Shown here piece after piece: positions 6,968 through 44,686 of a DNA stretch of 50,870 bases; the stretch's first letter is position 1, and each line of letters begins with the position of its first letter. A model generated the notes under the pieces. The model ran no database searches. It worked only from the letters and a program-made list of their open reading frames with translations, and was not told the DNA's origin. The stretch is from NCBI GenBank assembly GCA_964577595.1, contig CAZNZK010000002.1:1-50870 (forward strand). Direction: 5' to 3'. The position numbers and the translations under genes were made by a program. The stretch is from an uncultured Candidatus Saccharibacteria bacterium. GTDB taxonomy: Bacteria > Patescibacteriota > Minisyncoccia > Phycocordibacterales > JAKAEA01.

Positions 6968-7011
6968 GTTAAAATCCTCCTGAAGAAACCTTAAATCTTT
7001 TATGAAATCGC
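6968..7011 (-). repeat. Dispersed intergenic repeat, copy A
   Basis: GTTAAAAT-15 nt-TTAAATCTTTTATGAAATCGC; same length and flanks as copies B and F. Confidence 0.75.
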
Positions 7012-7099
7012 TAGTTGCAAAACAAAATTTAAAAAAATGCAAGTTGACGGCACAGAGAAACTTGCTATCATATAGAGCGTATTCTTATGAAAAATGCCC

Positions 7100-7538
7100 T
7101 TATGGAGTTCTGTCTCCATCGGGGTGTTTTTCGTATTTGATATTAAATTCCAAAATATTCTTGAACTCGTTGAGATATACTATAGGCACCCTGATTTTTC
7201 TCAGAAGAAACGACGCCGCGGCCCGCGGGGAAACAATAGATCGTAATGCTTGTCGATCATTAAGGAAATTTGCTAAACAAGCAAAATCGCCGTCACTTGT
7301 CACGACTACGGCTTGCGACATAGTATCTTCGTAGAAATCTCGCATCTTCCAAATTGCGATAAATAGTGTCATGTCCGGGAACTTTTCCTAAAAACATCTT
7401 GGCAACTTGTATGTCGTATTTTTCAGCCAGCCACACTCTAAATCTCCGATAGTCCAGTTTCCAGCCAACTTCCGAAATCCCGTGATGAAGATTGGTTTCG
7501 TCAATATAGGCGACTCTATTATTAAAAACGGGTAACAT
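7100..7538 (-). pseudogene. NYN/LabA (DUF88) domain protein with an internal deletion and frameshift
   Basis: AYIDETNL...GWKLDY in one frame and AVVVTSDGDF.CL in another; the KGN.D.EL segment expected between them is missing. Confidence 0.8.
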
Positions 7539-7560
7539 ACCGCCACTCTTACACAACACT

Positions 7561-7604
7561 GTTAAAATTCTCATCAATTTTTCTTAAATCTTTTGTGAAA
7601 TCGC
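7561..7604 (-). repeat. Dispersed intergenic repeat, copy B (reference copy)
   Basis: GTTAAAATTCTCATCAATTTTTCTTAAATCTTTTGTGAAATCGC. Confidence 0.85.
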
Positions 7605-7631
7605 GCACTGCACCACAAAAATCAACCAACA

Positions 7632-7661
7632 CAAAAGCCCACTCGTTAGAGTGGGCTTTTG
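7632..7661 (-). terminator. Intrinsic terminator after the cell-surface protein gene
   Basis: CAAAAGCCCACTC-GTTA-GAGTGGGCTTTTG perfect hairpin with A/T tails on both sides. Confidence 0.85.
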
Positions 7662-7715
7662 TTTAGCTAATCTTCTTAACTAACCAAGGTCAATTAAGCG
7701 AGATTCACAAGTAGC

Positions 7716-42481: not shown

Positions 42482-42506
42482 AAAAAGAGATTAGAAAAAG
42501 ATTAAA

Positions 42507-42692
42507 TTAAAAGTGGCTGATTAAGAACTTGAGGCCTTGGGAGAAAACGTAATCAAGAGCGCCGGAATAGATAGCTACGCCGAGGGAAATAGCAACAACG
42601 ATAAGCGTATAAATAAGCGTCTGGCGACGGGAAAGCCAGGAAACATGCTTAAGCTCGGTGCGAGTTTCTTTAAGATAGGTAAAGGGGTTCAT
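42507..42692 (-). CDS. secE: Preprotein translocase subunit SecE
   Basis: YLKE...ELK.VSW.SR, one TM helix, upstream of nusG. Confidence 0.92.
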   Translation of the reverse strand: MNPFTYLKETRTELKHVSWLSRRQTLIYTLIVVAISLGVAIYSGALDYVFSQGLKFLISHF

Positions 42693-42813
42693 ATTTTTTC
42701 TAGGTAATTTTTTTGCCCGTATTTCTAGTAAAAACCGCCCCCGTGGGCGATTGATACATACTACCACCCTCGTCAAAAATGTCAATTAGCGAGCTTCTAA
42801 AAGTGGTACCCCG

Positions 42814-43614
42814 CTAGCGAATTTCGTAGGTAACAGTAACATTCTCCGTGACGGTGTTTTGGCCAGTGGGAATACTCGGTGTGACAGAGTCAGCGGCCTT
42901 AGCAACGCTCGCGGTGGCGTACATTATAGGCCCGGGATAGTTGCCGGATTCTTGAAAATTAACCACCTTACCAAGGCGCACGCCAAGCTGGCTGGCGAGA
43001 AGCTGAGCTTTTGACTCCGCATCAGCAATAGCGGCGGCCCGAGCTTGATCCTGGCCGGCATTTTTATCTTTTGTCGTAAAGTTGATACCGCCAACATTTG
43101 TAACGCCCATCTGACCGATAGTCTGCAAGAGCGAGCCGACAGTAGCGGTGTTTTCAACTTGTACATCAATGGTTTGCGAAACTTCATAACCATCAGCAAC
43201 CTGACGGACGGGCGGGCAACCATTAAGCGGGCAAATAGTAGGACTACTTGAATAGGTGTAGTGAGGATTAATGGAGTAGTTGGTAGTTTTGATGTCAGTA
43301 TCAGCAACACCAGCCTGCTTTACGGCGGCAATAGCCTGGTTTGCAAGAGTGGAAGCGGCAGTCTGCGCGTCAGCGACCGTGGCCGCTGTTTTGTCTACTG
43401 TGAAAGAAAATTCAGCGATATTGGGCACAACAGTGGCATCACCCTGGCCAGTAACGGCAATGGTGGGGATAGTGCTGATATTTTCCGGACCCTTACCTAA
43501 GCCACCAAAAGTACTAATGGCAACAGCAATCAAAGCCAGAGAAGCACAAATAAGGAGTAGGCCGATAAGCCCGCGAATTCTCGGGTCGGTTAAGTTGGGG
43601 TTGGTTGGATTCAT
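42814..43614 (-). CDS. SIMPL (DUF541) domain protein
   Basis: TI.V.G.G....P..A, AR.AA..DA..KA..LA..LGV.LG.V, I.TG...VT..V.V.YEI. Confidence 0.9.
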   Translation of the reverse strand: MNPTNPNLTDPRIRGLIGLLLICASLALIAVAISTFGGLGKGPENISTIPTIAVTGQGDATVVPNIAEFSFTVDKTAATVADAQTAASTLANQAIAAVKQAGVADTDIKTTNYSINPHYTYSSSPTICPLNGCPPVRQVADGYEVSQTIDVQVENTATVGSLLQTIGQMGVTNVGGINFTTKDKNAGQDQARAAAIADAESKAQLLASQLGVRLGKVVNFQESGNYPGPIMYATASVAKAADSVTPSIPTGQNTVTENVTVTYEIR

Positions 43615-43648
43615 AAGAGGTTGTAATTAGCTTATAAAGTTAAGACGA

Positions 43649-44533
43649 TTATAGCACTTTTTTATTACATCGTGAGAGCCGGGCAAAAATGCCGGCGGGC
43701 AAAAGGCGACCATTATCAGCCGTTTCAACAAGTGCTAATTCCCCCGCTTCTAGCGTGGCAAATAGGCCGTCAAAAAGTGAGGAGAGTGCGTTGGCATAGC
43801 CCAAAGCAGAATAGCCTGAAGCATACCCATTAACCAAAAAGAAAAGTGGCTCCGGCGATAGAGCCTGCTTGCACAAATCTAAAAGCTCAAGAAAATCATC
43901 TTCAATTTTCCATACCTCCCCTTTTGGGCCACGGCCGAAAGCTGGCGGGTCAAGAATGATGCCGTCGTAGTGCCGGCCGCGCTTTATTTCCCTTTTCACA
44001 AAAATGCGCGCATCATCTAAAATCCAGCGAACGGGCTTATCGCTTAAGCCAGAAAGAGCAGCGTTCTCGCGCGCCCAGCCAATAGCCGCCTTAGAAGCAT
44101 CTAGGTGGGCCACCTCCGCCCCGGCCGCCGCAGCAGTAAGCGTGGCACCGCCCGTATAACCAAACAGATTCAGAACTGAAACTTTGCGCCCAGCCGCCTT
44201 TATTTTTTCACCCATCCATTGCCAATTCGGCTTCTGCTCCGGAAAAATCCCCACATGCTTAAAGGCCGATGGCCGGATCACAAATTTTAAATCAGCGAAT
44301 TCTATGGCCCACTGCCGTTCCGCACCGCCCTTGAATTTCCAGCTTCGCTCGGTCGTGTCAAAAGTACCATCAGCATTGCCCCAGGTTTTTTGCGGCAAAC
44401 GTTTCGGCCACAAGGCCTGCGGGTCAGGCCGAGCTAGCACCATTTTGCCAAAACGCTCTAGTTTCTGCCCTTCCCCGCTATCTAGCAATTCATAATCAGC
44501 CTCCGCCTCGGTGGTGAGTATTTGTAAATTCAT
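43649..44533 (-). CDS. Class I SAM-dependent methyltransferase (RlmI/RlmK-like)
   Basis: YELLDSG...KLERFG, FKHVGIFPEQ..NW, VLNLFGYTGGATL, YDGIILDPP.FGRG. Start placed at MNLQIL. Confidence 0.85.
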   Translation of the reverse strand: MNLQILTTEAEADYELLDSGEGQKLERFGKMVLARPDPQALWPKRLPQKTWGNADGTFDTTERSWKFKGGAERQWAIEFADLKFVIRPSAFKHVGIFPEQKPNWQWMGEKIKAAGRKVSVLNLFGYTGGATLTAAAAGAEVAHLDASKAAIGWARENAALSGLSDKPVRWILDDARIFVKREIKRGRHYDGIILDPPAFGRGPKGEVWKIEDDFLELLDLCKQALSPEPLFFLVNGYASGYSALGYANALSSLFDGLFATLEAGELALVETADNGRLLPAGIFARLSRCNKKVL

Positions 44534-44643
44534 CTCCCTATTATACAGGATAATAAAAAGTGCCCCACCCGCATAGCTGCAAGGTGCGGCACAAAACTTA
44601 TCAAGCTCCAATTGACGTACTTAATTTTCTGATGAGCAATGGT

Positions 44644-44686
44644 CGATTTCATAAAAGATTTAAGAAAAATTCAGCCAAATTTTAAC
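44644..44686 (+). repeat. Dispersed intergenic repeat, copy F
   Basis: CGATTTCATAAAAGATTTAAGAAAAATT-CAGCCA-AATTTTAAC, reverse-complement match to copy B apart from the 6-nt core and one base. Confidence 0.8.

Follow-up and report, generated by a model that had tools for sequence, protein, structure and literature searches.

A phased-repeat promoter module upstream of predicted DNA-uptake and recombination genes in a Patescibacteria genome

We analyzed a DNA stretch of 50,870 nucleotides (contig CAZNZK010000002.1 of assembly GCA_964577595.1), referred to as the window throughout, and in particular a short, mostly intergenic element that recurs in it. The window originates from genome G000 (797.7 kb on five contigs, G+C content 0.48), whose RecA relatives are metagenome-assembled genomes of the Parcubacteria/Paceibacteria within the Patescibacteria. 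An earlier description made from the letters of the window, here called the sequence-only reading, listed six copies of the element and took it either for the binding site of a dimeric regulator or for the crossover site of a tyrosine recombinase at the junctions of gene cassettes. The analysis reported here indicates that the element is almost certainly a promoter module. Very probably, this module marks a competence-type regulon, i.e., a toolkit for DNA uptake and recombination combined with recurring nuclease- and toxin-like genes.

Copies of the module in the window

All six copies (A to F) are present with the positions and strands given in the sequence-only reading, which had overlooked two further copies at 824-851 (minus strand) and 33259-33286 (plus strand), named G and H. 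A search for AAAATT-N6-AATTTTAAC with at most two mismatches returned 8 matches in the window versus 0.64 expected, and not one of 100 shuffles reached this number. As described before, every copy is co-oriented with the unit that follows, whose start is 21-119 nt away, and copies C, D, and E overlap with the stop codon of the preceding open reading frame (ORF). The similarities between the copies were likewise confirmed. B and D are identical over the 28-mer TTTAAGAAAAATTGATGAGAATTTTAAC, from which E differs by one base, while A, B, and F have a further upstream block, CGATTTCAYAAAAGA, in common; the similarity with copy F extends to 62 nt. The six bases between the two arms of the proposed dyad, its core, read GATGAG in copies B to E; A has CAGGAG and F has CAGCCA.

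The comparison with G001, a sister species whose genome was taken whole and whose segment C2:9.1-52.5 kb is collinear with the window, divides the copies into two groups: A, C, and D precede core genes, while the genes behind B, E, F, G, and H are missing from G001. Copy A (6968-7011, minus) is a CAGGAG-type module in front of a gene encoding a secreted lipase-like surface protein of 1091 aa. Its -10 box TATGCT is located at 6953-6958 and the ATG at 6944-6946, a leaderless geometry, and the orthologous promoters of G001 and of a further relative, G002, have retained the module. Copy C (13720-13759, plus) is the module of the recA-efp operon, with the -10 box TAGGAT at 13770-13775 and recA at 13849-14898; it is conserved before recA in G001, G011, and G010. 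Copy D (16949-16992, minus) belongs to the rpsF-ssb operon, with the -10 box TATAGT at 16933-16938, rpsF at 16353-16904 (Ribosomal_S6 match), and ssb at 15825-16307 (SSB match, E 4e-41), and is also kept in G001. The leader of approximately 90 nt that extends from this promoter to the rpsF start codon (window 16850-16930; G001:C2:24720-24790) is strongly conserved in the two species (…GCCGCYTGTGGTACCCTTGTGGCTACTATG). It matches no Rfam family at E up to 0.1 and may represent an autoregulatory leader of the S6/S18 type.

Copy B (7561-7604, minus) is a GATGAG-type module before an apparently frameshifted NYN-domain gene, with the ATG at 7536-7538, 22 nt past the module, and a degenerate -10 box (TAAGAG/AAGAGT). 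The NYN gene (7100-7577) looks broken, as it consists of an 81-aa ORF starting from the ATG at 7538 and an overlapping 90-aa ORF (7100-7372); an intact paralogue of 167 aa is encoded on contig C3. Copy E (22452-22491, minus; -10 box TATGCT at 22436-22441) is located within a 2.9-kb accessory island (~20.59-23.50 kb), and the next ORF encodes an antitoxin-like protein of 71 aa (22117-22332). Copy F (44626-44686, plus; -10 box TAAAAT at 44697-44702) represents the long, 62-nt form of the module and precedes a cassette composed of a tRNA mimic and an antisense RNA (~44.70-44.97 kb).

Among the two additional copies, G precedes a 98-aa GIY-YIG ORF (505-801), with the -10 box TAGTAT at 809-814 and the ATG at 799-801. 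This ORF resides in the 23S rRNA gene (window 1-1579, minus), where the match to model positions 1-1032 is spread over 1579 bases and thus implies an insertion of approximately 550 bp. The insertion (480-1030) holds the GIY-YIG ORF with its own module promoter in leaderless geometry, and the ORF has no homologue in G001. H is a weaker module (22.6 bits) before a gene with an ORF6N domain, whose ATG at 33308 lies 21 nt past the module; ORF6N homologues in G003 and G030 are also found behind the box. Four stretches of the window are accessory in that they have no homologues in G001 (20590-23497, 33230-34810, 37480-41275, and 49252-50319), the first of which holds copy E with the antitoxin-like gene and the second the ORF6N gene.

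The sequence-only reading had placed several copies at the edges of accessory genes. They do adjoin such genes, but because they are the own promoters of these genes, and copy E lies inside its island. If the copies were crossover sites, gene gain and loss should break within the 6-bp core; none of the three indels relative to G001 that we checked has this form. At the NYN locus the gene itself is absent in G001, whose single promoter matches copy B through the module and the -10 box to the ATG (TAGAGTGGTGGTATG versus TAAGAGTGGCGGTATG). Consequently, G000 carries the NYN ORF together with a second module, copy A, between the ancestral promoter and its gene, and the junction falls at or after the start codon. 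The island around copy E has no copy at its edges, E being positioned about 1 kb inside. The cassette of copy F is absent from the syntenic G001 site, which shows a 76-bp spacer, and the left edge of the cassette is located upstream of the module. This pattern fits cargo genes that come with their own promoter copy, or homologous exchange between promoter copies, rather than a crossover site.

Promoter anatomy of the module

For the genome-wide search we used an anchored 31-nt weight matrix, with five third-order Markov simulated genomes as the null. In G000, 50 sites score at least 16 bits, compared to one or two per simulated genome (about 1.6 expected). All per-copy statistics refer to the 40 non-overlapping sites of at least 20 bits that are left when overlapping registers are removed; 34 of these are located outside ORFs. 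A genome-wide scan for number, strand, and position, proposed with the sequence-only reading, therefore yields approximately 40-50 copies, which are oriented and linked to promoters.

Read in the direction of transcription, the module is composed of up to four phased 11-bp direct repeats with TTnA, namely TTCATAAAAGA, TTTAAGAAAAA, TTGATGAGAAT, and TTTAAC. With the start codon as +1 it spans from about -66 to -23, and the best-conserved block, ATTTTAAC, occupies positions -30 to -23. When the consensus is laid out in registers of 11 nt, four phased TTnA blocks (TT.A, TTTA, TTcA, and TTTA) come to lie below each other, and the autocorrelation of the information content peaks at lag 11 with a value of 0.49, which shows that the repeats are direct and do not form a dyad. 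Among relatives, the sequence of the two promoter-proximal repeats is TTTATAAAkATTTTAWC, in which TTTAW recurs cleanly in direct orientation with an 11-bp period.

The dyad that had been taken as the defining feature of the element stands up in one half only: its right arm, AATTTT, is kept with at most one mismatch in 35 of the 40 copies, but its left arm, AAAATT, in no more than 18. Between the arms, 12 copies have GATGAG, 7 have CAGGAC, and the remaining ones some other sequence. This core also differs at orthologous promoters of G000 and G001, where GATGAG is replaced by GATAGG (recA) or CAGCGG (rpsF) and CAGGAG by GATGAG (lipase-like gene), while the GAATTTTAAC block and the -10 box have not moved. 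The bases noted as a core make up the variable end of the second repeat.

A feature overlooked in the sequence-only reading is a -10 box of the form TAnnnT, which in 24 copies follows at an offset of 9-10 nt from the terminal C of the module, compared to a background of 2.65%; the 9-10 bases in between are unconserved. In 21 of the 40 copies, an ORF of at least 45 aa begins with ATG or GTG 21-25 nt past the module. In these, the start codon is only 6-7 nt away from the -10 box with no space for a Shine-Dalgarno sequence, which implies leaderless mRNAs. None of the module promoters has a TTGACA-like -35 element at 16-18 bp upstream of the -10 box, where TGAGAA, AGGACT, or variable bases are found; the normal place of the -35 element is taken by the second and third repeats. 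General promoters of G000 are of the TGnTAnnnT type with little information at -35, and CTTGACA is enriched upstream of genes. The -10 boxes of the module promoters belong to the same TAnnnT/TGn class.

The predicted regulon and its conservation in relatives

Products of the module-driven genes were named according to Pfam and NCBIfam. The DNA-uptake and recombination genes among them encode ComEC (DUF4131 and Competence domains), a C-terminal part of ComEC/Rec2 with its own module (TIGR00361, E 1e-10), DprA, ComM (Mg_chelatase), a ComF-family protein (TIGR00201, E 1.6e-22), and a single pilin. They further include a T2SSE ATPase and a T2SSF protein in succession, both of 365 aa and thus of ComGA/ComGB size, and the operons of recA with efp and of rpsF followed by ssb. 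The ComEC of G000 is split (C2:169088-172142) into a 533-aa protein with DUF4131 and Competence domains and a 272-aa C-terminal metallo-beta-lactamase-like protein; the two halves have separate module promoters with two small ORFs between them, and the same arrangement is found in G007 and G030. No comEA was identified in G000. At C1:183211-184258, a module is followed by a gene for a PLD-family nuclease, a gene for a membrane-anchored protein whose C-terminal half resembles an OB fold, a gene for a small membrane protein, and leuS. The OB-like protein was recognized by eye only and has no match in Pfam or NCBIfam. Together with the PLD nuclease it could form an extracellular DNA-cutting and DNA-binding pair that replaces ComEA/EndA.

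The other module-driven genes include one for a subtilase and one for a DHH (NrnA-like) protein. Four encode PemK/MazF-like proteins, with Pfam support for one of them and sequence similarity for three, and two encode NYN proteins, again with one supported by Pfam. A GIY-YIG protein was recognized from a weak NCBIfam match and an ORF6N protein by eye only. In addition, five tRNA-mimic cassettes are each preceded by a module, one in the window (44687-44975) and four at C1:122768 (minus), C1:118978 (plus), C1:85511 (minus), and C1:137759 (plus) of G000. These cassettes are built from a leader hairpin, the tRNA-like RNA, a T-run, and a second small transcription unit that is complementary to the anticodon arm of the mimic.

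The module is absent from the three other full-length T2SSE genes, the two other T2SSF genes, and the seven other pilin-like genes of G000, which lie in two large pilus clusters. Nor does it occur upstream of rpoBC, tuf, fusA, the L2 gene, dnaK, gyrA, ftsZ, eno, and the 23S rRNA gene, all of which score below 9 bits, compared to at least 20 bits for the members of the regulon. As this housekeeping set lacks the module, we rejected the notion of a generic strong promoter.

At first, the element appeared to be specific for a single species. The 17-mer TTSAKGASNATTTTAAC occurs 20 times in G000 versus 0-2 copies per genome in 40 relatives, two of them from the same genus, and a scan of the recA upstream regions from 80 Patescibacteria genomes, which had first suggested this idea, found the module in the closest genome only. 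It was overturned by degenerate searches for the geometry of the promoter, which reveal conservation throughout the family of G000 (12 genomes). The pattern ATTTTAWC-N9-10-TANNNT-N5-8-ATG matches 50 times in this family versus 3 times for reversed controls, and 8 times versus once in G030, a genome from a different family of the same order; elsewhere in the order it stays at control level. For TTTAW-N6-TTTAWC-N9-10-TANNNT the corresponding numbers are 66 versus 3 and 12 versus 1. The reversed control pattern is over-represented in G039 (13 matches) and G044 (15), compared to 0-3 elsewhere; some other repeated motif seems to fit it there by chance.

Nine genes that lie behind the module in G000 have G001 orthologues in the same situation, i.e., comEC, comM, recA, the pilin gene, the small T2SSE gene, comF, the PLD nuclease gene, rpsF, and the lipase-like gene. 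The comM promoters of the whole family and of G030 share the form T-rich...TTTAWC-N9-10-TAnnnT-N6-ATG; in most other families comM adjoins the gene before it and lacks a separate promoter. Further relatives show overlapping subsets of the same genes behind matches to the geometry: ComEC, the C-terminal part of ComEC, DprA, NYN, and PemK in G007; ComEC, DprA, RecA, and the small T2SSE in G011; ComEC and ORF6N in G003; RecA and PemK in G010; and ComF, the small T2SSE, and the lipase-like gene in G002. In G030, the matches precede ComM, the C-terminal part of ComEC, two PemK genes, and two ORF6N genes. With the same geometry and gene families in 11 related genera or species within the family and also in one further family, the predicted regulon, including members that look accessory, is conserved across genera. 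We class the element as a putative lineage-specific promoter box of the activator type that defines a competence-centred regulon.

Candidate mechanism, alternatives, and known systems

The proposal of a binding site for a dimeric regulator is retained insofar as the element is a promoter-linked cis-regulatory site. A dimer on the dyad is not tenable, as roughly every second copy lacks the left arm and the core varies freely, while tandem 11-bp repeats are conserved across genera. Instead, the repeats would be occupied head-to-tail, all on the same face of the helix, by a sequence-specific activator that would substitute for the contact of sigma region 4 with the -35 element in the housekeeping RNA polymerase, in the manner of PhoB at PHO boxes and of PafBC at its "-26 element". 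We consider such an activator a more plausible explanation than an alternative sigma factor or intrinsic DNA shape, and the whole account, up to and including a dedicated activator, appears on balance probable.

A tentative candidate for the activator, which we put forward with considerable doubt, is the only OmpR/PhoB-family response regulator of G000 (C5:62084-62758), with its adjacent kinase at 61103-62077; exactly one regulator with a Trans_reg_C domain is encoded in the genome. Regulator and kinase are arranged divergently from nrdA/nrdB (C5:61103-66764), the nrd genes having been identified by eye only. Orthologues of the regulator with at least 49% identity are present in 10 of the 11 other genomes of the family and in G030.

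Several points weigh against this account. The weight matrix was trained on G000 itself; the regular-expression searches of other genomes with reversed-pattern controls are independent of it. The gene map is a crude ORF map, 16 of the 40 copies have no strict TAnnnT at an offset of 9-10, and the predicted start site and leaderless mRNA for half of the copies are deduced from the spacing. Five 42-nt copies in G000 are 94.5% identical, for which recent spread or gene conversion is no worse an explanation than selection for binding. Housekeeping genes (efp, tsf, leuS, RNase J, and secG) are located within module-headed operons, so that the regulon is not purely devoted to DNA uptake. Members of the ComK, TfoX (TfoX_N), LytTR, WYL, and PhoU families are absent from G000 (WYL at E up to 0.1). 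As to the candidate regulator, orthologues occur in the box-less genomes G017 and G043, and G006 has the box and no orthologue. Due to this imperfect match, the link between regulator and box is weak and could merely follow phylogeny.

An unlikely alternative is that the module serves as the equivalent of a -35 element for one of the small sigma factors that resemble the extracytoplasmic function (ECF) group, i.e., a competence sigma such as ComX/SigX of streptococci or SigH of staphylococci, without any activator. G000 contains sigma-70-family genes at seven loci, one of RpoD size (open frame 426 aa, called ORF 395 aa) and six small and ECF-like, which is a large number for a reduced genome of 0.8 Mb. 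This set speaks for the alternative, as does the lack of the known competence activators ComK and TfoX. The conserved block ends in AAC, a triplet typical of ECF -35 elements. Moreover, late competence genes of streptococci are under sigma control in the cin-box/ComX regulon (PMC5167698). However, the -10 boxes of the module promoters are ordinary TAnnnT boxes, some with TGn, as in general promoters. The gap between AAC and the -10 box amounts to 9-10 bp, compared to 16-17 bp in ECF promoters, and nothing is conserved at 16-17 bp past AAC. In addition, the phased repeats extend to about -60, beyond the contacts of a sigma factor, and none of the six small sigma genes is located behind a module, so that there is no sign of autoregulation.

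We consider it distinctly improbable that no dedicated factor is involved at all, with the phased A/T tracts acting as an UP element or curved-DNA enhancer of constitutive promoters whose copies spread by duplication or gene conversion. The A-tracts are indeed phased at about 11 bp, the five 42-nt copies mentioned above precede unrelated genes, seven 28-mers in G000 are identical, and the NYN gene sits with a second module between an ancestral promoter and its gene; the reuse of promoters before non-homologous genes is documented in prokaryotes (PMC3575422). On the other hand, a specific gene set recurs across genera behind diverged module sequences, highly expressed housekeeping genes lack the module, and TTTAWC is conserved in sequence and exact position beyond mere A/T content. 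Furthermore, for the seven shared core promoters, similarity among the copies within G000 (0.68) is no higher than between orthologous pairs (0.67). Hence, concerted evolution is not supported for these seven promoters and finds support only for the subset of 5-9 near-identical copies.

Hardly credible is a role as a site-specific recombination site, or as a homology anchor for insertion and excision of cassettes: copies B, E, F, G, and H accompany genes absent from G001, the NYN indel is bounded by the co-oriented copies A and B, and one subfamily shows a dyad around a 6-bp spacer, but the spacing of the element to the -10 box and the start codon is fixed, it is kept before immobile core genes (recA, rpsF, comM, comEC) across genera, its core differs at orthologous sites, the NYN junction lies outside this core and the edges of the island around copy E carry no copy, it is located at the 5' end of each unit, unlike attC of integrons, and about half of the copies lack the dyad. 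The idea of a DNA uptake sequence was dropped, as there are only about 50 copies, all of them promoter-linked and oriented.

Cultivated Saccharibacteria have been shown to undergo natural transformation, and conservation of com genes extends over the candidate phyla radiation (CPR), though regulation was not addressed (PMC10633639). Our searches of the literature revealed no promoter motif, competence box, or competence regulator described for Patescibacteria. The box provides a sequence handle to predict co-expression with the DNA-uptake machinery in an uncultured lineage. It sets the ComG-like pilus apart from two other type IV pilus clusters and points to unexpected predicted members, i.e., MazF/PemK, NYN, ORF6N, the PLD nuclease with its OB-like partner, and the tRNA-mimic cassettes. 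It could also be used as DNA bait to find the regulator, and the native promoters may be of use for genetic tools in Parcubacteria. Speculatively, a signal-controlled master activator might govern natural competence in this Paceibacteria family, with the box as its operator; the sole OmpR/PhoB-type two-component system of G000 would be one possibility. If this held true, DNA uptake, recombination by RecA, DprA, and ComM, the MazF, NYN, and ORF6N genes, and the tRNA-mimic cassettes would be induced together, and the Patescibacteria (CPR) would have their first defined competence regulon and regulator. The box would then also be a portable promoter in this species that wires incoming cargo into the competence programme.

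Among known systems, the PHO box resembles the module in its tandem 11-bp direct repeats, in the variable number of units, and in the position of the box in place of the -35 element. In Escherichia coli, the proximal unit of the PHO box ends about 10 bp before the -10 box, which matches the spacing of the module. The two differ in sequence, CTGTCAT compared to TTnA/TTTAW, and in the regulon, which covers phosphate transport there and DNA uptake and recombination here; no phosphate-transport genes are found among the module-driven genes, and G000 has no PhoU. The 11-nt units of the PHO box are bound head-to-tail by PhoB, which recruits sigma-70 (PMC4415409).

In mycobacteria, the PafBC-controlled "RecA-NDp" promoters (sigma adaptation) are hybrid promoters of the form tGTCgg-N10-tAnnnT that are transcribed by SigA and have recA in their regulon; a "-26 element" occupies -28 to -23, and there is no -35 element (PMC8635444). 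With TTTAWC-N9-10-TAnnnT, a canonical -10 box, and no -35 element, the module promoters are hybrids too, with a geometry that is the same to the base. Both regulons comprise recA and genes of DNA metabolism, and leaderless mRNAs are numerous in mycobacteria and predicted to be so in G000. Judging from the class of their -10 boxes, the module promoters would likewise use the housekeeping sigma factor. In contrast to the PafBC system, the element has a different sequence and further phased repeats upstream, the regulon includes the DNA-uptake machinery, and G000 encodes no WYL-domain protein. The module would be a third, unrelated example of the logic by which an activator element at -26 replaces the -35 element.

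Competence regulons defined by a motif are known as CRP-S in gamma-proteobacteria (PMC1635313), the cin-box/ComX in streptococci (PMC5167698), and ComK boxes in bacilli (PMC3536758). As in these cases (CRP-S, cin-box/com-box, ComK box), a single short promoter motif marks a late competence set (comEC/rec2, dprA, comM, comF, the com pilus genes, ssb, and recA), and it can serve to predict the regulon in related genomes, which has been done with CRP-S and ComX. The motifs themselves are of different construction: CRP-S is a 22-bp palindrome, the cin-box a special -10 element, and ComK boxes are paired A/T boxes, whereas the module consists of phased direct repeats, and G000 has no homologue of ComK or TfoX.

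Finally, the module resembles mobile or reused promoters (PMC3575422), since 5-9 copies in G000 are near-identical over 28-42 nt before unrelated genes (ComEC, DprA, rpsF, NYN, PemK) and accessory genes arrive together with a module. In contrast to these promoters, the shared sequence is here at the same time an old, family-wide box with a conserved gene set.

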